DNA from: Proteobacteria bacterium UBA6503
Lineage (GTDB): Bacteria > Pseudomonadota > Alphaproteobacteria > UBA1280 > UBA6503
Direction of reading: 5' to 3'
Assembly (NCBI GenBank): GCA_002436405.1
Contig: DJLZ01000005.1
Coordinates: 265,743-329,742, forward strand
DNA length: 64,000 nucleotides
Shown here one piece after another: positions 2,188-9,646 of this stretch (the first letter of the stretch is position 1; every line of letters begins with the position of its first letter). Under the pieces are notes generated by a model. It did not search any database, was not told the DNA's origin, and was given only the letters and a program-made list of their open reading frames with translations. Made by a program: the position numbers and the translations under genes.

Positions 2188-3126
2188 TTAAAAGCTAAAG
2201 CTTACCTGATAACCATAATGGTCAGTGTCAGGCGCGCGCAAAGCACTGGCTTTATGCACAGTTGCCTTTTGGGGCAACAGCACAAAGTCAAACGGTGCTA
2301 CGGGCAGCAGCTTAAGGCGTACGCCCAAAAGGCGGAACTCAGCCGGCAAGGTTGCTTTGGGCAACGATGCGAGCTTCAAACCTTGAGCTTTGCTCACTTT
2401 GCGCACATGAACATCCCACGGCACGTTGTTAAAGTCGCCGCCAACCACAATGGGGTAGGGCGTCTTCACATCGCAAATCAGGTCCGTAATCGCATTGCGC
2501 TTATCGGTCCGTTGCGGCGTAAACGGCGCATGAGGGTGCAAGTGAACAAAATGGAAGGTACCATTCGGGTGGTAAACCTCGTAGTGCACCATGCGCCCAT
2601 TGGCATCAGTCTTCACGTGCTTTAGCGGCACTTTTGACAATATAGCCATGCTATAACCCAACACACTGTCGGTAATGCGAACCACATATTGGTGCGGGTA
2701 CATACTTTTCAGCTGTGCAAAGGCCTTGCGCATTTTGTTGTTCACTTCACAAAGGGCGAGAACATCGGCCTTTTGCTTTTTCAGAAAATTCACCTGTGCG
2801 GTCACGTCTTTATTGTAGGTATAGACGTTCAGCAACAGCATATTGATGTTTGGCTTGTTGTTGGGGTTTCCTTTGGGCTTTTCAGCATTCACGAAAACCT
2901 TAAAAGCAGGCCAATGTTTTGCCAAGGGGGCAAGTTTACGGCGCCATTTGGGCTGATGGATACCAGCTTTATAGAGGCACATAAACAAAATACCACGCCA
3001 CGGCGTCATAAGGGCGATTGCGGTGAACAGCAGTAGCCAATAGGGCGAACCTGGCAGCGAGAGCACAAGGCCCAGCAACCAGATAACTGCGCAAACCAAC
3101 GACACACCCAAGCGGATGTAGTGCAT
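2188..3126 (-). CDS. Endonuclease/exonuclease/phosphatase (EEP) family protein with N-terminal TM helices
   Basis: 312 aa with a hydrophobic N-terminus. The C-terminal half has an EEP-like pattern (GGDFN, histidine-rich catalytic region). Confidence 0.5.
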   Translation of the reverse strand: MHYIRLGVSLVCAVIWLLGLVLSLPGSPYWLLLFTAIALMTPWRGILFMCLYKAGIHQPKWRRKLAPLAKHWPAFKVFVNAEKPKGNPNNKPNINMLLLNVYTYNKDVTAQVNFLKKQKADVLALCEVNNKMRKAFAQLKSMYPHQYVVRITDSVLGYSMAILSKVPLKHVKTDANGRMVHYEVYHPNGTFHFVHLHPHAPFTPQRTDKRNAITDLICDVKTPYPIVVGGDFNNVPWDVHVRKVSKAQGLKLASLPKATLPAEFRLLGVRLKLLPVAPFDFVLLPQKATVHKASALRAPDTDHYGYQVSFSF

Positions 3127-3369
3127 AGTTTCACCTTAGGTTAGAGGGAAAGAAAGAAAAGGATATAAGATAGTTGCTTTAAGCCTGAGGATACCTGAAT
3201 CCATGTTAAAGCCCAAGCCTAATCCCGAACATAAATAAAAAATCTTTTAGAATCACGAGCTTGTAAATACAAAGAAAATTAAAAAAAATGCAAAAAAATC
3301 AATTTTTTCCTTTGAAGTAGCGTAAAAACTACCTATCTTTAAAAGTACGAGAAATCTTTTCCGTAACAT

Positions 3370-3417
3370 CTTACTTTCTTTTTCCCTTTTCTTTTTTTTC
3401 CTCCAAGGAGAATACCT
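3370..3417 (+). promoter_or_regulatory. Polypyrimidine (CT-rich) 5' leader with AAGGAG RBS in front of the ClpP-fold gene
   Basis: The sequence cttactttctttttcccttttcttttttttcctccAAGGAG lies 7 nt upstream of the ATG at 3418. A near-identical architecture recurs at 4717-4773. Confidence 0.4.
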
Positions 3418-4524
3418 ATGTTTACTGATAACCTCCCGCAGCCGACGACGCTGGAAGAGGCCGAGAAGGCATTCACCGATGCGGTGAACGCTTACCACAT
3501 CACCATTCCCGATGATTCGCATGGTGGCCGTGGCTTCGCTCTTCCCTCGATCATGTTCAAGCACCGCATCCTGTACCTGCACGGTCCTGTTACCCAGGAA
3601 GCCGTTCAGGCGCTCTGCATGCAGCTGCACTACCTGTGCAGTGAACCGGTGCTCAAGCAGCCGAACCGTTCGCGTCGCATCACGCTGTACGTGAACAGCC
3701 CTGGTGGTCTGGTGGGTGAGGGTCTGACCCTTTTCTACTACCTCCGTCAGGCGGAAGAAATCACCCGTGAACCGGTCGCCACCGTCATCCAGACGATGGG
3801 CGCCTCCATGGGTTCGTTCCTCCCGCAGGCGGCTACGCCTGGTTACCGGCTGATGATGCCGTATTCGCAGATGATGATTCACTCGCTCTCGTACGGTGTA
3901 CAGGGCAAGCGTGAAGATCACACTCGTAGTGTGGGCCAGACCCGCAATATGATGGCTGCGATGTACGAAGTCTACGTCGACAAGATGGCTGAAGCGCGCG
4001 TGCTCTTCGGCGGCAAGGAAGACACCCCGGAACTCCGTGGTGAAATCCTTCGCTGGCTGTTCGAGCAGATGGAAGACGACGATGTTTTCATGTCGCCTCT
4101 CCAGACGCTCGATGCCGATCTGACCGACTTCGTCGTGCACTCCGAGGCCGAGCAGTTCGAGTACTACAAGGCACTCGACTGGTACCACGGTCTGTACAAG
4201 GAAGGCCCGAATCCGGAAGAACCCGGCAAGACGACCCTGATTCGTGCGGAAGCCGATCAGCAGTCTGGCCGTGTGACGCCGTTCGAGCTCAGCGATGCTG
4301 AGAAGGCCCGTGCCCTCGCCGAGATCAAGCGCTTGCGCAAGATCAACCGTGAGAAGACGGTCGCTTTCGAAGGTCGCCGTGCACCGATCGAAGCTGCTCT
4401 GGCTGCTCTCGATACGGTTCGTATCCAGGAAGGCACCGGCACCCGTAAGGGTAACGGTCCGGCCTATGATACGGCTATCGAAGCGTTCGAAGCCGCTCTG
4501 AAGGGTTCGTCCAAGAAGAGCTAA
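3418..4524 (+). CDS. ClpP-fold (S14-like) serine peptidase with about 170-aa C-terminal coiled/acidic extension; compositionally foreign
   Basis: The ClpP core is recognisable: LYVNSPGG..GL (compare INSPGG), a GASMGSF serine motif, and a MMIHSLS histidine motif. The CDS is GC-rich with CTG/CCG/CGT/ACC/ATC-biased codons, unlike the flanking genes. Confidence 0.6.
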   Translation: MFTDNLPQPTTLEEAEKAFTDAVNAYHITIPDDSHGGRGFALPSIMFKHRILYLHGPVTQEAVQALCMQLHYLCSEPVLKQPNRSRRITLYVNSPGGLVGEGLTLFYYLRQAEEITREPVATVIQTMGASMGSFLPQAATPGYRLMMPYSQMMIHSLSYGVQGKREDHTRSVGQTRNMMAAMYEVYVDKMAEARVLFGGKEDTPELRGEILRWLFEQMEDDDVFMSPLQTLDADLTDFVVHSEAEQFEYYKALDWYHGLYKEGPNPEEPGKTTLIRAEADQQSGRVTPFELSDAEKARALAEIKRLRKINREKTVAFEGRRAPIEAALAALDTVRIQEGTGTRKGNGPAYDTAIEAFEAALKGSSKKS

Positions 4525-4538
4525 TAGCGAAAACGGAA

Positions 4539-4569
4539 AGCCGCCCCATTAGGGGCGGCTTTCTTTTTG
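4539..4569 (+). terminator. Rho-independent terminator after the ClpP-fold gene
   Basis: agccgcccc-atta-ggggcggct followed by ttctttttg. Confidence 0.6.
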
Positions 4570-4716
4570 CCTAAATAGGGGGGATTTAAAGGGCTTAACC
4601 TAGTGCGGCATATGCATGGATTTTCGGAATAAATATCGAATTTAATTAAAGTTTTAGCCCAAAAAGGCTTGGTCAATTGGCTTGATTTGGGGTAATGTGT
4701 ATACCAATTGTGTAGA

Positions 4717-4773
4717 TTTTCTTCTTTTTCTTTTTTTCTTTCCTCTTTTTACTTACATGCCTAGGAGTTTCTT
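4717..4773 (+). promoter_or_regulatory. Second polypyrimidine leader with TAGGAG RBS in front of the acidic/vWA gene
   Basis: ttttcttctttttctttttttctttcctctttttacttacatgccTAGGAG, then ATG at 4774. Confidence 0.4.
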
Positions 4774-6564
4774 ATGGCAAATCCCAATCAAGAGGCACTG
4801 AACCAGGTGCGTGCGCTTTTGCGTGCGTATGTTCGGTTTGGCGCCAGTATCATGGTCGACACCGAAGGTGTCGTTCCTGCTGAACTGTACCTTGTGTTGC
4901 AGCAGGTCCTGGGTATCGAACCCGGCCAGCCGCTTCCCAAGGAAATCATGGACGTGCTTCATGCACACGCCAAGTCGCTTGCTCAAGTTGAGTCAAGCCT
5001 TTCCGAAATGGAACGCAAAGAGCTTGAAGCTTTCTGGAACCGCCTGAAGGCGGCCAAAAACCAGAAGCAGCTCGAAGCCGCCGAAGATACGAAAGCCGAT
5101 ATGAGCCCCAATGCTCAGAAGGCTGTCGATCTGCAGCGTCGTCTGCGCCAGAGCATTGCAACGCAATTGCTTGATGCGTGGAAGGCGAAGAATGATCCTG
5201 AAGAGTCCGAAGAGGACCAGCAGGACGAAGGCGGTGATGACGATCAGCACTCCGATGCTCAGGACATGGACGAACCCTCTGAAGACGAAGCCGACGGCCA
5301 AGATGGCGAAGGCGACGACGAAGGGGACGACAAGTCTGACGGCTCCGGCGGCGGCGAAGGTGATGACGATGGCGAAAGCGATGGTCAGGGCCAGGACGGC
5401 GACGGTGAAGGTGAACCTGGCGAAGGTCAGGGGCAACCCGGAGATGGCAAAGGCCAGCCCAGCGATGGGAAGGGTCAGCCTGGTGATGGCAAAGGCGAAC
5501 CTGGCGAAGGCCAAGGTGAAGCCGGCAAGGGTGAAGGTCAGGGGCAGCCCTCCGATGGTGAATACCAGGAGAGCAACGCTGCCGAAGACAAACAGCCCGG
5601 CCATGACGAATGGATGGAACAGCTCCAGAAGGAGCTGGAAGAGCAGGCGCAAGCCGAAGCTGAAGCCGAGGCTGAAGCCGAAGGTGAAGGCGACGGTGAC
5701 GGCGAAGGCGATGGTGAAGGCGATGGTAAGGGTGAAACCGATACCACCGACCCCAACCGTAGCAAGGATGTTGAAGGTGTCTTTGACCTTTCGAACCTTG
5801 TGCCCGACCCGGCAGACGTCAACGCTGCAAAGCAGGCTCTGTCTCGGATGATTGCAAAGGGTCTCGATAACCCCACGCAGCTTCCGCGCTGGAAACTTGG
5901 CGAGTTCGTCAAGCGCCAGACCACGCTTCGTAACCTGAAGGGTGCAAAAAAGCCTACGCTGGAACGGAAAGCGGTGATGTTCATCATCGATAACTCGCCC
6001 AGTATGGCTCACTTGCAGGCTCAGTCGCGCGCCCTTGCGGCCGCACTGTCCGCCACCGGTGGTCCCGCAGGGGCCGACGTTGTGGTTGCCCTCAGCTTTA
6101 ACGGTCACTACAGCGACTCCAAGCCCCTGACTGAGAAAAATCAGGATGGTGCGTGGTTCCTTAACGGGAAGCTGATGGGGCAGTTGCCGAAGCCCAGTAA
6201 GTCCAGCGGTGTTGATGAAAAACACCATGGTAACTGCTGGAAGTGGTTCATCCAAAAAGTCTTGCCCAAGTACAAGGTGAATGTCCATCTGATCGGCATT
6301 TACGGCGACTACGACGGGACCAAGGAATGGTGCTACATCTCGAACGAGATGAAAGGCATTCAGACCCTCTGGTTTAACCCGGAAAACAAGGAGCTGGAAG
6401 GCGTTCTCGAACGCAAAAACCCCAACTTCTCTGAACGTTTGGGTTCCAGCTACGGTTACGTCAAAGGTGACCGTCGCTTTGAGCTTTTCCGAGGCACGTT
6501 CTTCACGCAAGTGGATACTGTCCAGGATATTGCCCAGGCCCTTCGTAAGGTCGCAGGCGTATAA
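4774..6564 (+). CDS. Large acidic low-complexity protein with C-terminal vWA-like domain; compositionally foreign
   Basis: 596 aa. The N-terminus is helical, residues about 140-330 are D/E/G-rich heptad-like repeats (DGKGQPG units, EAEAEA, GDGEGD), and the C-terminal block VMFIIDNSPSM (DxSxS MIDAS-like) ... VVVALSF ... VHLIGIYGD fits a vWA fold. GC and codon usage match the upstream ClpP-fold gene. Confidence 0.5.
   Translation: MANPNQEALNQVRALLRAYVRFGASIMVDTEGVVPAELYLVLQQVLGIEPGQPLPKEIMDVLHAHAKSLAQVESSLSEMERKELEAFWNRLKAAKNQKQLEAAEDTKADMSPNAQKAVDLQRRLRQSIATQLLDAWKAKNDPEESEEDQQDEGGDDDQHSDAQDMDEPSEDEADGQDGEGDDEGDDKSDGSGGGEGDDDGESDGQGQDGDGEGEPGEGQGQPGDGKGQPSDGKGQPGDGKGEPGEGQGEAGKGEGQGQPSDGEYQESNAAEDKQPGHDEWMEQLQKELEEQAQAEAEAEAEAEGEGDGDGEGDGEGDGKGETDTTDPNRSKDVEGVFDLSNLVPDPADVNAAKQALSRMIAKGLDNPTQLPRWKLGEFVKRQTTLRNLKGAKKPTLERKAVMFIIDNSPSMAHLQAQSRALAAALSATGGPAGADVVVALSFNGHYSDSKPLTEKNQDGAWFLNGKLMGQLPKPSKSSGVDEKHHGNCWKWFIQKVLPKYKVNVHLIGIYGDYDGTKEWCYISNEMKGIQTLWFNPENKELEGVLERKNPNFSERLGSSYGYVKGDRRFELFRGTFFTQVDTVQDIAQALRKVAGV
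5408..5563 (+). repeat. Imperfect 21-bp tandem repeats encoding DGKGQPG-type heptads
   Basis: cagcccagcgatgggaagggt / cagcctggtgatggcaaaggc / gaacctggcgaaggccaaggt and related units in tandem. Confidence 0.6.
5653..5736 (+). repeat. 6-bp tandem repeats (gccgaa/gctgaa then ggYgaM) encoding (EA)n and (GD/GE)n
   Basis: Direct reading of the sequence. Confidence 0.6.
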
Positions 6565-6579
6565 ACCATTAACGACTAA

Positions 6580-6607
6580 GGCCCCCAGCAATGGGGGCCT
6601 TTTTTTG
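6580..6607 (+). terminator. Rho-independent terminator after the acidic/vWA gene
   Basis: ggccccc-agcaat-gggggcc followed by tttttttg. Confidence 0.6.
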
Positions 6608-6719
6608 TGCTTAAACCTTGGGAAGTCTAAAATTTAGGCAGTTTAGATAAATAAAATGATAAAAACCTCATTTTTGCTATTGCAATGCGGTGCGGTTTTG
6701 GCTAAAAATACATCTCGTT

Positions 6720-6795
6720 GCGGGTGTAGCTCAGTTGGTAGAGCGCAACCTTGCCATGGTTGAGGTCGAGAGTTCGAGTCTCTTCACCCGCTCCA
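6720..6795 (+). tRNA. tRNA-Gly (anticodon GCC)
   Basis: GCGGGTG acceptor stem with CACCCGC-T-CCA at the 3' end. The anticodon stem-loop caacc-TTGCCAT-ggttg gives anticodon GCC. The T arm has GTTCGAGTC. Confidence 0.9.
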
Positions 6796-6800
6796 AATAA

Positions 6801-6836
6801 AAGCCCTTTGCTTAGCAGAGGGCTTTTATTTTTGCC
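6801..6836 (+). terminator. Terminator downstream of tRNA-Gly
   Basis: aaagccctttgc-ttag-cagagggcttt followed by tattttt. Confidence 0.5.
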
Positions 6837-6943
6837 GAATGTCTTAATATTCCTTCAAACTGCCCAGTTAAAGTACACCTCGGCTTGTGCCACCCCCTAT
6901 AAAGAACTAAGATATTTGCAAAAGAACAAAGGCAATAGCTCAT

Positions 6944-9646
6944 ATGTCTAACTGGCTTCGGGTGCCAACCTTACAAGATCCTCGTCCGTATGCTGCATCC
7001 TTGCAGCTTTCTTTCCTTGTGATTGGCATGTACCTATTAGGCTTTAACCGCACATGGGGGCAGGTGCTGTTTATTGTGGGTGCTTGTATTGTGCTCGACT
7101 TTATTCTGCACTTTGTGATTCACCGTAAGCTGCTCTTTCCGTTTAGTGCGCTGCAAACAGGTTTGTCGCTCGCTATTCTAACCAGCTTTGGTTTGGGCTT
7201 ATGGTTGGCGCTGGTGCCTGTGTTTTTATCAATCCTTTCAAAGTATGTGGTCACCTACAAAGGTCGCCATATTTTTAACCCGTCACTGTTTGGTCTTGCC
7301 GCTACCATTTACTTTATGGGCGACCTTATTGCCGTAAGCCCTGCAAAGCAGTGGGATGGCAGCGTAGGGGTGCTAGTTTATATTTTGGCGGGCGCCATTA
7401 TTTTTGTAATGCCTAAGATTAAACGTACGGCGCTTGTGTTGTCGCTATTGGGATTCTTTGGGTTGCAGGTATTGGCCCGTGCATACTGGCTTACGCCTGA
7501 AATTCCGTTAGAGACGATCTTTTACGGCTTGTTCTTCTCGCCAGCGTTTTACTTGTTTGTGTTCTTCTTTTTGACTGACCCTGCCACAACGCCGAATGAC
7601 CCTAAAAAACAAGTGGCCATGACGGCGGCCATTGTTTTGATTGATACGCTATTCCATGCGTTTCAAATTCTATCGAGTGTATTTTACGCGGGCTTTATTT
7701 ACTTTGCGCTTCGTTGGTTATGGCTTGTGGCAAACGACGCCCTGAAAGAGCCTGATCTTAAACACCGCCTTAAACGCCTTGCCTTACCAGTGGCTGGGCC
7801 TGTTGTGGCCATGGCTGTGCTTGTAGGCTTAAGCTACGGGGTGCATGAGGCTGCAAAGGCGCACCTGCCAACCGTACAGGCTAACTTTAAGCTAGAACGC
7901 ATGTATGTAGGCATTGAGGGCCGTAAGGGCGACACCCTTGATCAGATTGACCCCCGTGCAAAACACATTGCTAAATGGCTGCTGGCTGCGGGCGAGGGTG
8001 TCAATGTTGTGGATGTAAACAACGATGGCCTGCTGGATGTATTCTTGACCCAAACGCAAAAGCGTGGGGCTGACCGTGTGCAGCTTTATATTGCTAAGGC
8101 CCCATTTGTGTATGAGCAGTTTGCTTTACCTCAGTTGCAGCGCTACCGTGAAAATGAAAAACAAAACGGAGTGCCTGCCGGTGCTATGTTCTTTGATGCA
8201 GATAACGACGGCGATAAAGACCTGCTGATTCTTGCCCTTTCGGGTAAGCCAATGTTTTTGCAAAATATGCTCACTGAAACGGGTGAGCTTGGCTTTACCG
8301 AAGCACCACTACCTGGTGATGCCGCAGGCCATCAAAATGCCGTTGCCGTTACTGCGGCTGACTTTGATAACAACGGCTACCTAGATGTGGTGTGGAGTAA
8401 TTACTTCCCTAAATACCATGAGGCTTACCCTGGCGCGCAGCGCTTACTGAATATCTTTAACCTACCTGAAGCTGAATATGAGGGCGATAACCGCCCACAG
8501 CATATTTTGTACAACAGCTGGGCTAATGCCACTAACGGTGGCCTAAGCCGTTATATGGCAGGTGGTGCAGGCGGCTTTGAAGATGTGGGCGACCCTTTTA
8601 ACCGCACCACTTGGACGCTAGCACTTGGTGCAGCTGACCTTAACAACGATGGCCTGCAAGATATTTACTTTGCCAATGATAACGGCCCAGACGACATGTT
8701 TATGCAAAAAGCCAGCGGTAAGTTTATCCGCCTTATTGGCCTTAACCGTAGCGGTGTGGGTCGTGATACTTATAAAGGGATGAATGTCTCGTTTGCGGAT
8801 TTTGATAAAAACGGCATGCCCGATATTTATGTTTCAAACATGCATGAACCTACACTTGTTGAAGGCAGCATGCTGTGGCTGAATAATACAAAAGAGGGCG
8901 AGTTTAACGGCAATGCCTTTACAAACTCAGCCAGTTCAAAAGGAACTTGGAACGAAAAGCGCTTTGGTTGGGGCGCTGGCGTGGGGGATTTAAACCTAGA
9001 TGGCCAACCTGATATTGTGCAAGCGAACGGCATGATTGATACAAACTATGACTCACCACTACTGTGCACCAGCTATTGGTATGCCTCAGGCCTACTTACG
9101 GGTGCCGTATCACAAGTATTACCGTATGCCGATAAATGGCCGTCAATGGTGGATAAATGCATGTTTGCCGGTGAAAAGAACCGTGTATACCTTAACGAAG
9201 GTGGTTACTTTGCTGATGTTGCAGATGAAGTAGGTTTTGCAACGCCTAATACAGCACGTGCCATTGCCTTAGCTGACCTTGATAACGATGGCGACCTTGA
9301 CGTTATTGTAGCGCATCCAACAGCTGCCCCAAGCTTTTATAAAAACACCCGTAATGAACCCATGGGGGATTGGCTTGGCGTAAAGCTTGTGGGTAATGGC
9401 CAAACCTGTAACAGCGATGCTGTGGGTACACGTGTGCACCTAACCTATGGCGGTGCAGACCCTGTAACGCTTGAACAGCGTGTATATGCTACGCAAGGAA
9501 TGTCAGCCCAAGGCGACCAGCGCCTACTGTTTGGCCTAAATGGCTACAGCGGCATGGTGAAGCTAAAAGTTGATTGGTGCGGGCAGGGGGCTGATGTAAC
9601 AACGGCCCAAGTTGCCTCGGGCCGTTATACAACTTTAAAGCAGTAG
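6944..9646 (+). CDS. Polytopic membrane protein fused to FG-GAP/VCBS-like Ca-binding repeats and ASPIC/UnbV-like C-terminus (CRTAC1 family-like)
   Basis: 900 aa. The N-terminal roughly 300 aa carry several predicted TM helices. Repeated Dx[ND]xDGxxD motifs follow (VNNDGLLDV, DADNDGDKDL, DFDNNGYLDV, DLNNDGLQDI, DFDKNGMPDI, DLNLDGQPDI, DLDNDGDLDV). The C-terminus has the VGTRVHLTYGG ... Q tail typical of ASPIC/UnbV. Confidence 0.6.
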   Translation: MSNWLRVPTLQDPRPYAASLQLSFLVIGMYLLGFNRTWGQVLFIVGACIVLDFILHFVIHRKLLFPFSALQTGLSLAILTSFGLGLWLALVPVFLSILSKYVVTYKGRHIFNPSLFGLAATIYFMGDLIAVSPAKQWDGSVGVLVYILAGAIIFVMPKIKRTALVLSLLGFFGLQVLARAYWLTPEIPLETIFYGLFFSPAFYLFVFFFLTDPATTPNDPKKQVAMTAAIVLIDTLFHAFQILSSVFYAGFIYFALRWLWLVANDALKEPDLKHRLKRLALPVAGPVVAMAVLVGLSYGVHEAAKAHLPTVQANFKLERMYVGIEGRKGDTLDQIDPRAKHIAKWLLAAGEGVNVVDVNNDGLLDVFLTQTQKRGADRVQLYIAKAPFVYEQFALPQLQRYRENEKQNGVPAGAMFFDADNDGDKDLLILALSGKPMFLQNMLTETGELGFTEAPLPGDAAGHQNAVAVTAADFDNNGYLDVVWSNYFPKYHEAYPGAQRLLNIFNLPEAEYEGDNRPQHILYNSWANATNGGLSRYMAGGAGGFEDVGDPFNRTTWTLALGAADLNNDGLQDIYFANDNGPDDMFMQKASGKFIRLIGLNRSGVGRDTYKGMNVSFADFDKNGMPDIYVSNMHEPTLVEGSMLWLNNTKEGEFNGNAFTNSASSKGTWNEKRFGWGAGVGDLNLDGQPDIVQANGMIDTNYDSPLLCTSYWYASGLLTGAVSQVLPYADKWPSMVDKCMFAGEKNRVYLNEGGYFADVADEVGFATPNTARAIALADLDNDGDLDVIVAHPTAAPSFYKNTRNEPMGDWLGVKLVGNGQTCNSDAVGTRVHLTYGGADPVTLEQRVYATQGMSAQGDQRLLFGLNGYSGMVKLKVDWCGQGADVTTAQVASGRYTTLKQ

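Follow-up and report, generated by a model that had tools for sequence, protein, structure and literature searches.

A rare family of vWA/MIDAS-like proteins with an acidic linker, probable adaptors of MoxR-type AAA+ ATPases, in marine alphaproteobacteria

Introduction

The gene located at positions 4774-6564 (+) of a stretch of 64,000 nucleotides from Proteobacteria bacterium UBA6503 (contig DJLZ01000005.1; this whole stretch is called the window below) encodes a protein of 596 amino acids (aa) made of three parts: an all-helical N domain (residues 1-147), a disordered linker (residues 148-334) and a C-terminal alpha/beta domain (residues ~346-596). The most probable explanation, to which we give a probability of about 0.65, is that it serves as the adaptor in a rare two-component remodelling system of the MoxR-type AAA+/vWA kind. 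The domain architecture, an invariant motif of the MIDAS type (metal ion-dependent adhesion site), the fold match and, in the relatives, a strict order of AAA_5 gene then vWA gene are directly supported by the data, and it is because of these four elements that the family is placed among the MoxR-type AAA+/vWA systems. The protein is thus a new, previously unannotated representative of a known class, i.e., the MoxR-associated vWA/MIDAS adaptors.

The family and the ATPase gene of its members

An exhaustive HMMER search of 1.84 billion representative proteins gave a family of 25 representatives at E ≤ 1e-3, among which 12 at E ≤ 1e-10. A word-indexed search of 5.8 billion proteins returned one relative only, and no match was obtained by tblastn in phage and plasmid collections. 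The family is thus rare, and it is recognised neither by Pfam and NCBIfam nor by PHROGs and PADLOC. It is found in marine alphaproteobacteria, and phages or integrative elements harbour a distant branch of it. Full-length members (539-676 aa) have the same organization: a helical N domain, an acidic linker rich in Gly, Asp, Glu and Gln, and a C-terminal domain of ~260 aa. A metagenome scan with the alignment of the family (A3) recovered only the species of the window. The viral-contig scan made with the same alignment gave only one match (L016), which is spurious, being limited to the acidic region.

Outside the window, 15 loci are informative (7 cellular and 8 viral), and all have the same gene order: directly upstream of the vWA gene lies a gene for an AAA_5 (MoxR-type) ATPase. 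It is this strict order that makes the protein look like an adaptor of the NorD/CbbO/CobT type. In cellular loci, the upstream ATPases have 278-397 aa. The gene is complete in L001, L014, L018 and L028; only its 3' end, at the contig edge, is present in L013 and L020; in L027, which belongs to the distant branch, the ATPase and vWA genes overlap. The window itself departs from this two-gene arrangement, its upstream gene being ClpP-like.

The distant branch is also found on 8 viral contigs of IMG/VR (L031-L038, up to 168 kb), where the homologous ATPase gene is immediately upstream (E 1e-12 to 1e-30 when compared to chromosomal ATPases). The viral ATPase weakly matches phrog_249 (« porphyrin biosynthesis », 7e-7). 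In L031, the AAA_5/vWA pair is located between an integrase and a large helicase/PAPS-reductase-like module. It must also be noticed that proteins of this branch (P0014-P0025) share a strongly conserved motif, RPKGTDEVAPQS.NPS.DS.LHGGDG.SGEV, in their N-terminal part.

Structure of the folded domains

The protein was modelled with AlphaFold2 (AF2) using 25 sequences (an earlier run with 2 sequences, with a predicted local distance difference test (pLDDT) value of 44, was not usable). The mean pLDDT is 74. Expressed as means over blocks of 10 residues, pLDDT is 77-97 for residues 1-140, lower than 50 for residues 148-274 and 305-334, and mostly 79-96 for the C-terminal module, with two short dips. 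An N domain followed by a disordered linker, then by a vWA domain at the C-terminus, is the layout of MoxR systems, as judged from this confidence profile and from alignment A3 by comparison with NorD (PMC9976466).

The N-terminal all-alpha domain (residues 1-147; 4774-5214, +) is present in all full-length relatives. In the AF2 model its helices span residues 4-22, 36-45, 56-74, 78-93, 97-109 and 112-140. The domain matched no known family, and no consistent Pfam family was obtained for it.

The C-terminal module (residues 335-596; 5776-6561, +) begins with two helices, followed by an alpha/beta domain that is vWA/MIDAS-like. As in the vWA/MIDAS superfamily, the model shows a Rossmann-like fold, in which helices flank a central sheet, and the DxSxS motif is placed at the C-terminal end of strand beta1 (residues 400-406). 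This motif, D406-N-S408-P-S410 (5989-6003, +), is found in KAVMFIIDNSPSM (residues 399-411, containing DNSPS) and is invariant in 21 sequences. The best match of the model in PDB (Foldseek) is the MIDAS domain of human MDN1 (midasin), with E 6.6e-5 and a probability of 0.99; the sequence identity with midasin is just 10-15%. The next matches are the vWA domains of integrin I, CMG2, CLCA1 and ITIH1. In a comparison with predicted viral structures, the two top-ranking proteins have about 600 aa and one of them is annotated with a VWFA domain.

Over 21 C domains (distant branch included), the invariant residues are A391, D406, S408, S410, A424, N443, N464 and D512; G444 is nearly so. D512 (6307-6309, +), in IGIYGDYDG, is located after the central strand (residues 504-510) and just before a helix (residues 513-525); its position fits that of the Asp ligand and it is thus a candidate for the second MIDAS aspartate. 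The invariant N443 or N464 might replace the Thr ligand. A conserved beta-hairpin, W461-F-L-N464-G465-K...G469 (6151-6183, +; strands 460-463 and 466-470), comprises N464, invariant in the 21 sequences, and residues that are invariant (G465, G469) or nearly so (W461) among the 10 closer relatives. By analogy with NorD (PMC9976466, PMC13036017), the hairpin 460-470 is a candidate pore-inserting finger.

Several observations weigh against the assignment of the protein to a MoxR-type system. The canonical MIDAS threonine cannot be assigned, the 21-member alignment having no conserved Thr. No curated profile is above threshold when the protein is scanned with Pfam, NCBIfam, PHROGs and PADLOC, and a profile search against PDB sequences gave zero matches. 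In the window, the ATPase gene is not adjacent, and the 64 kb contain no AAA_5 homologue. Lastly, no close ATPase cluster has the contig count or the contig size expected of this well-sampled species.

The sequence profiles deserve some comments. No significant match was obtained with the curated vWA profiles PF00092, PF13519 and PF05762. VWA_2 is below threshold (E 0.045-0.095, i.e., 13.8-14.8 bits for a cut-off of 27), and sub-threshold matches are also found among the 21 members: VWA_CoxE for 11 of them (best E 0.0043), VWA_2 for 5 and VWA for 2. A first-pass annotation of this DNA had proposed a C-terminal vWA/MIDAS-like domain, to be abandoned if sensitive profile searches gave no vWA hit. 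This outcome is nearly reached with sequence methods: VWA_2 stays below its cut-off and the VWA_CoxE matches (11/21) are weak. Its proposal is nevertheless sustained by the fold model, the invariant DxSxS and the gene context; in other words, the vWA assignment is supported by modelled structure and by context, not by sequence profiles.

Comparison with known systems

NorD begins with an N-terminal domain for specificity, continues with a disordered linker and ends with a vWA domain that carries a MIDAS; the latter binds acidic residues of the target, and a finger of the vWA domain enters the pore of NorQ (PMC9976466). The linker of NorD is functionally relevant and is remodelled by the activity of NorQ (PMC13036017). 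The layout of the 596-aa protein resembles that of NorD: the N domain comes first, then the disordered linker, and at the C-terminal end a vWA domain in which the MIDAS motif is DxSxS (PMC9976466). More generally, it resembles NorD, CbbO, ViaA and CoxE (partners of NorQ, CbbQ, RavA and CoxD, respectively) by the gene order of its relatives, AAA_5 ATPase then vWA, by the predicted protruding hairpin of the vWA domain and by the weak VWA_CoxE matches. On the contrary, it has no significant sequence similarity to any of these four proteins, no nor, cbb, cox or respiratory genes are found nearby, its linker is far more acidic and the ATPase gene is missing from the locus.

In the tail of Rea1, a linker is followed by a region rich in D/E, then by a MIDAS domain (PMC6286127). 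The resemblance with the midasin/Rea1/MDN1 tail is twofold: a D/E-rich disordered region located directly before a C-terminal MIDAS, and a motor of the AAA_5 type (PMC6286127). The differences, besides the low identity given above, concern the size and the organization: midasin is one polypeptide of ~5000 aa, in which six AAA modules are fused and the linker is long and structured, whereas the motor of the relatives is a separate protein of ~350 aa. The succession that characterizes midasins in one polypeptide (six tandem AAA modules, linker, D/E-rich region, MIDAS) is thus not found, and the protein is akin to midasin in its design and fold without being a member of that family. To our knowledge, there are no ligands with a ubiquitin-like (UBL) domain in bacteria.

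CobT/CobS cobaltochelatase and BchD/ChlD-BchI magnesium chelatase associate an AAA+ subunit with a subunit of ~600 aa in which an acidic linker precedes a vWA/MIDAS domain. The protein of the window has the same linker-then-vWA/MIDAS order and a similar overall length (~600 aa). Nevertheless, CobT, CobT_C and Mg_chelatase profiles (Pfam, NCBIfam) gave no match above noise for it. No cobalamin or bacteriochlorophyll genes occur in the neighbourhood, which contains fab genes, mltG, gmk, tRNA-Gly, the ClpP-like gene and a gene of the endonuclease/exonuclease/phosphatase (EEP) family. Neither the profiles nor the tetrapyrrole context of CobT/BchD are thus found.

MoxR/vWA machines act in metal-cofactor insertion or in the reactivation of nitric oxide reductase, Rubisco and chelatases; for most members of this class we know of no target. 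Taking NorQ/NorD, CbbQ/CbbO and the Rea1/midasin tail as models, we infer metal binding, pore insertion and remodelling for the present family. The MIDAS (D406, S408, S410 and D512) would hold a divalent cation, the last ligand of which would be an acidic side chain of the target protein. The conserved hairpin would plug the pore of the AAA_5 hexamer. ATP hydrolysis would be relayed via the vWA domain and the linker, flexible and polyanionic, leading to the remodelling of the target, and the helical N domain would provide target specificity.

Acidic linker and DNA repeats

The linker (residues 148-334, i.e., 187 aa) contains 25% Gly, 19% Asp, 18% Glu and 11% Gln. With 68 Asp plus Glu residues vs. 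10 Lys plus Arg residues, its net charge is −58. It is interrupted by a helix conserved in the family, GHDEWMEQLQKELEEQ... (residues 277-303), with block-mean pLDDT of 83-85. The first-pass description of about 190 residues made almost only of Asp, Glu and Gly is thus roughly right, but the stretch is not uniform.

The first acidic disordered segment (residues 148-274; 5215-5595, +) is made of heptad-like units of Gly, Asp, Glu and Gln and has a net charge of −39. It is encoded by imperfect repeats (Tandem Repeats Finder): an array of period 12 at 5307-5375 (64% matches) and an array of period 21 at 5397-5540 (6.9 copies, 68% matches). The intra-linker helix follows (residues 275-304; 5596-5685, +). 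It carries a GH..W...L motif, then an (EA)n run (alignments A1 and A3), and is kept even in P0001, a member without N domain. The second acidic disordered segment (residues 305-334; 5686-5775, +) is a (GDGE)n run. An array at 5645-5736 (periods 6, 12, 18 and 24; 70-94% matches) overlaps this segment and the 3' part of the segment coding for the helix. The imperfect 21-bp and 6-bp repeats first reported at 5408-5563 and 5653-5736 are therefore recovered at close positions.

Across the family, the linker is variable in length (80-246 aa) and in sequence; its content of Asp plus Glu is 25-49% and its net charge ranges from −27 to −96. It is almost absent from P0001.

Variation among alleles

The sequence of the window was matched in a 669-kb contig of the marine metagenome-assembled genome (MAG) GCA_002295585.1, and a source name attached to the protein indicates a mesopelagic sample of Tara Oceans. 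A second MAG, GCA_002707865.1, differs from the window by 6 substitutions and 0 indels over 3.8 kb. In the latter (L009, 11357-13147), the orthologue is intact and has no gene call in the source; 5 of the substitutions are in the gene, among which 3 change an amino acid. The missing gene call is probably an annotation gap due to the low-complexity region.

The 90% cluster provided 11 more complete alleles, each of 596 aa, hence a set of 13 complete alleles. Since all 13 have 596 aa without any indel, the DNA repeats are not length-variable in this population, contrary to the expansion or contraction that had been suggested from the repeats. The number of variable sites per 100 aa is 3.4 for the N domain, 6.4 for the linker (mainly Asp/Glu or Lys/Gln swaps) and 0.8 for the C domain. 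The difference between the last two values indicates that the C domain is under purifying selection. One further allele, P0174 (621 aa), has a frameshift near the C-terminus, which reflects an error in the assembly or, alternatively, a null allele that is rare.

Reading frame and antisense open reading frame

The open reading frame (ORF) 4774-6564 (+) begins with ATG and is preceded by an AGGAG Shine-Dalgarno sequence (4763-4767). A polypyrimidine (CT) leader, predicted unpaired, lies immediately 5' of the latter (4715-4756, +), and an intrinsic terminator, i.e., a 10-bp stem then a T run, is located at 6578-6610 (+). The identical 596-aa protein is found on at least 23 contigs and has homologues with E 1e-84 to 1e-207 over the C domain. 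Together with the confident predicted fold, this establishes that the ORF is a real gene, in agreement with the frame chosen in the first-pass annotation.

The minus strand carries an ORF of 532 aa with a TTG start (4993-6591, −). An analysis of the codon register over 9 homologous loci shows that it is in exact register with the sense gene, so that antisense stops arise only from sense TTA, CTA and TCA codons. The sense gene contains 0, 0 and 1 of these codons, respectively, vs. ~26 expected from the codon usage of 18 other genes of the window. The equivalent antisense frame is also open in the GC-rich homologues L014 and L018; it is interrupted by 17 stops in the low-GC relative L001 and by 15 in L027. 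The antisense ORF is a codon-register artefact, and the proposal that it merely mirrors the composition of the sense strand was correct. That this hydrophobic ORF could be the true product is hardly conceivable: its length and its TTG start would be in favour, and everything else, i.e., the register that accounts for its openness, the stops in relatives, and the homologues and fold of the + frame, is opposed to it.

The ClpP-like neighbour

The gene upstream in the window (3418-4524, +) encodes a ClpP-fold protein of 368 aa with a C-terminal extension of ~170 aa (PF00574 at 2e-22). The catalytic Ser and His are aligned to those of solved ClpP, the Asp being outside the aligned region. The protein scores roughly alike on profiles of cellular ClpP and of phage head-maturation proteases. 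Its gene has its own CT leader (3367-3406, +) and a terminator with a 13-bp stem (4535-4564, +), and is a transcription unit separate from the 596-aa gene.

The ClpP-like family comprises 8 clusters at 46-99% identity, usually adjoining gmk and/or EEP genes. The orthologues with 66% and 46% identity are located after gmk or beside EEP genes; downstream of them lies PfkB or DUF6356, and a vWA gene is absent. More generally, ClpP-like orthologues occur without a vWA gene (L022, L023 and L024), and the vWA relatives occur without a ClpP-like gene. For the orthologue with 72% identity, both contigs stop ~310 bp past the gene, before any downstream gene. The short intergenic segment cgaatttaatta is common to the window (4525-4773) and the region that follows this orthologue in L025 (4223-4531); the latter has ~150 nucleotides extra, and the contig ends before the next gene. 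Because of the terminator between the two genes and of the orthologues without vWA neighbour, the ClpP/vWA adjacency looks like the junction of two synteny blocks and not like an operon or a conserved pair.

Shared leaders and codon usage

A membrane-anchored EEP protein is encoded at 2188-3126 (−; PF03372 at 1.2e-14) by a gene with a CT leader (3138-3170, −) and an atypical codon usage. The GC content at third codon positions (GC3) of the EEP (0.60), ClpP-like (0.71) and vWA (0.62) genes is the highest among the ~50 genes of the window, the others being in the range 0.31-0.52. Host genes for ribosomal proteins and acyl carrier protein (ACP) are rich in CTA and TCA and almost never use CTC and TCC. 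In the ClpP-like and vWA genes the choice is the reverse: CTC and TCC are used, CTA and TCA avoided. The EEP gene falls in between, with CTC, TTG, CTG and TCG and no TCC. The host genome has unusual optimal codons in general (L008 1118-5674 included): CTA/CTT are preferred for Leu and TCA for Ser, with CTC representing 28 out of 936 Leu codons and TCC 3 out of 489 Ser codons.

In each of the three genes, the Shine-Dalgarno sequence is also directly preceded by a polypyrimidine tract. One other such tract occurs in the 64 kb, inside a coding region, and the window contains 36 overlapping 28-mer matches vs. 0.24 expected. The leader, often initiated by TATCTTT, also precedes many ATPase, vWA, ClpP-like and EEP genes of other lineages. 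These results suggest that the EEP, ClpP-like and vWA genes are under shared control, and a functional link with the ClpP-like gene would be compatible with them; leader and codon signature together may mark a regulon.

The nature of this control was searched for in several ways. The Rfam scan of 3100-7000 returned tRNA only, and the sigma-70 scan gave no promoter-like site upstream of the ClpP-like or vWA gene. RNA folding of seven leaders revealed no conserved or significant structure, the CT tract being predicted unpaired; an RNA thermometer or a sequestration of the Shine-Dalgarno sequence by the CT tract is thus unsupported. A sigma-32-type promoter at the TATCTTT box was rejected, the spacing to candidate −35 elements being different between loci. 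A recent island at tRNA-Gly was also rejected as the sole cause of the atypical composition: ClpP-like orthologues of other lineages share the GC3 excess and the same gmk-linked position. No relevant literature was found on pyrimidine-rich leaders in Alphaproteobacteria.

Downstream region

A tRNA-Gly(GCC) gene is located downstream of the vWA gene (6720-6795, +), and the same succession is found in L014, which shares the downstream synteny of the window (tRNA-Gly, tRNA-Asn, tRNA-Cys, PCMT, rhodanese). The independent short-read contigs L003, L004, L006 and L007 end in or at tRNA-Gly(GCC), i.e., at ~6754-6756 of the window, which suggests a repeated copy of the tRNA or a strain-variable downstream sequence. 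Farther, 6944-9646 encodes an unusual fusion of 900 aa, with an N-terminal RnfD/NqrB-like membrane region (PF03116, 2e-8), FG-GAP repeats and a C-terminal ASPIC/UnbV domain.

Alternative explanations

Given its position, the ClpP-like protein could be the true partner of the vWA protein: the MIDAS adaptor would pick substrates for an ATP-independent or trans-activated ClpP-like peptidase, which would replace the AAA+ partner. The genes are adjacent, on the same strand and 249 bp apart; the ClpP-like gene fills the slot held by the ATPase gene in relatives, and the catalytic Ser and His are kept. With the EEP gene, these two genes bear the sole intergenic polypyrimidine leaders of the 64 kb; their non-host codon usage is common, and the same leader is found ahead of AAA and vWA genes in several relatives. 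We nevertheless regard this partnership as unlikely. A strong terminator separates the two genes, the more distant orthologues (66% and 46%) have PfkB or DUF6356 neighbours in place of a vWA gene, a ClpP-like neighbour is present in 0 of the 15 other vWA loci and the adjacency is confined to the contigs of this species. The ClpP-fold partner put forward in the first-pass annotation is thus not retained, the conserved partner in relatives being the AAA_5 ATPase. A wider version of the same idea is very doubtful: the EEP, ClpP-like, AAA_5 and acidic-MIDAS genes would form a dispersed co-regulated module, recognizable by the TATCTTT box, the polypyrimidine leader and the non-host codons, in which the ClpP-like peptidase would have replaced here the AAA+ motor as partner of the MIDAS adaptor. 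If true, this replacement would constitute a MIDAS-targeted proteolysis system of an undescribed kind.

Two other explanations concern the protein itself. It is very unlikely that the hyper-acidic region is the functional part, i.e., a polyanionic cation buffer, a scaffold or a nucleic-acid mimic titrating DNA- or RNA-binding proteins, the folded domains being secondary. The strong negative charge over 187 residues and the acidity kept in the whole family are in line with such a role; the linker is however conserved neither in length nor in sequence, is nearly absent from P0001 and is the fastest-evolving part of the protein within the species. The decoy for nucleic-acid-binding proteins and the cation scaffold, imagined from the repeats, have likewise received no specific support. 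The missing ATPase gene raises the question of a relic, i.e., an adaptor that has lost its ATPase and is decaying or already non-functional. At the position conserved in relatives there is no ATPase gene, and none was detected for this species either; the allele P0174 is frameshifted, and the gene uses codons in a way opposite to the host genes for ribosomal proteins and ACP. Such a decay seems quite unlikely when one considers that 13 alleles and at least 23 contigs carry an uninterrupted reading frame, that all family-invariant residues are kept, that the few variable sites of the C domain with respect to the linker indicate purifying selection, and that a Shine-Dalgarno sequence, a leader and a terminator are all proper to the gene.

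Conclusion

The reading of the protein as the adaptor of a MoxR-type system is thus preferred. In this species, the protein has remained intact, with a C domain that hardly varies between alleles; for that reason, it is probably an orphaned but maintained adaptor that still works, either with an ATPase encoded elsewhere or in an ATP-independent manner. The gain for annotation is modest. The combination of a D/E-rich linker with a midasin-like MIDAS provides a compact two-protein model for the role of an acidic tether in AAA+-driven remodelling, and the orphan copy described here is a natural test of the function of an adaptor without a dedicated ATPase.

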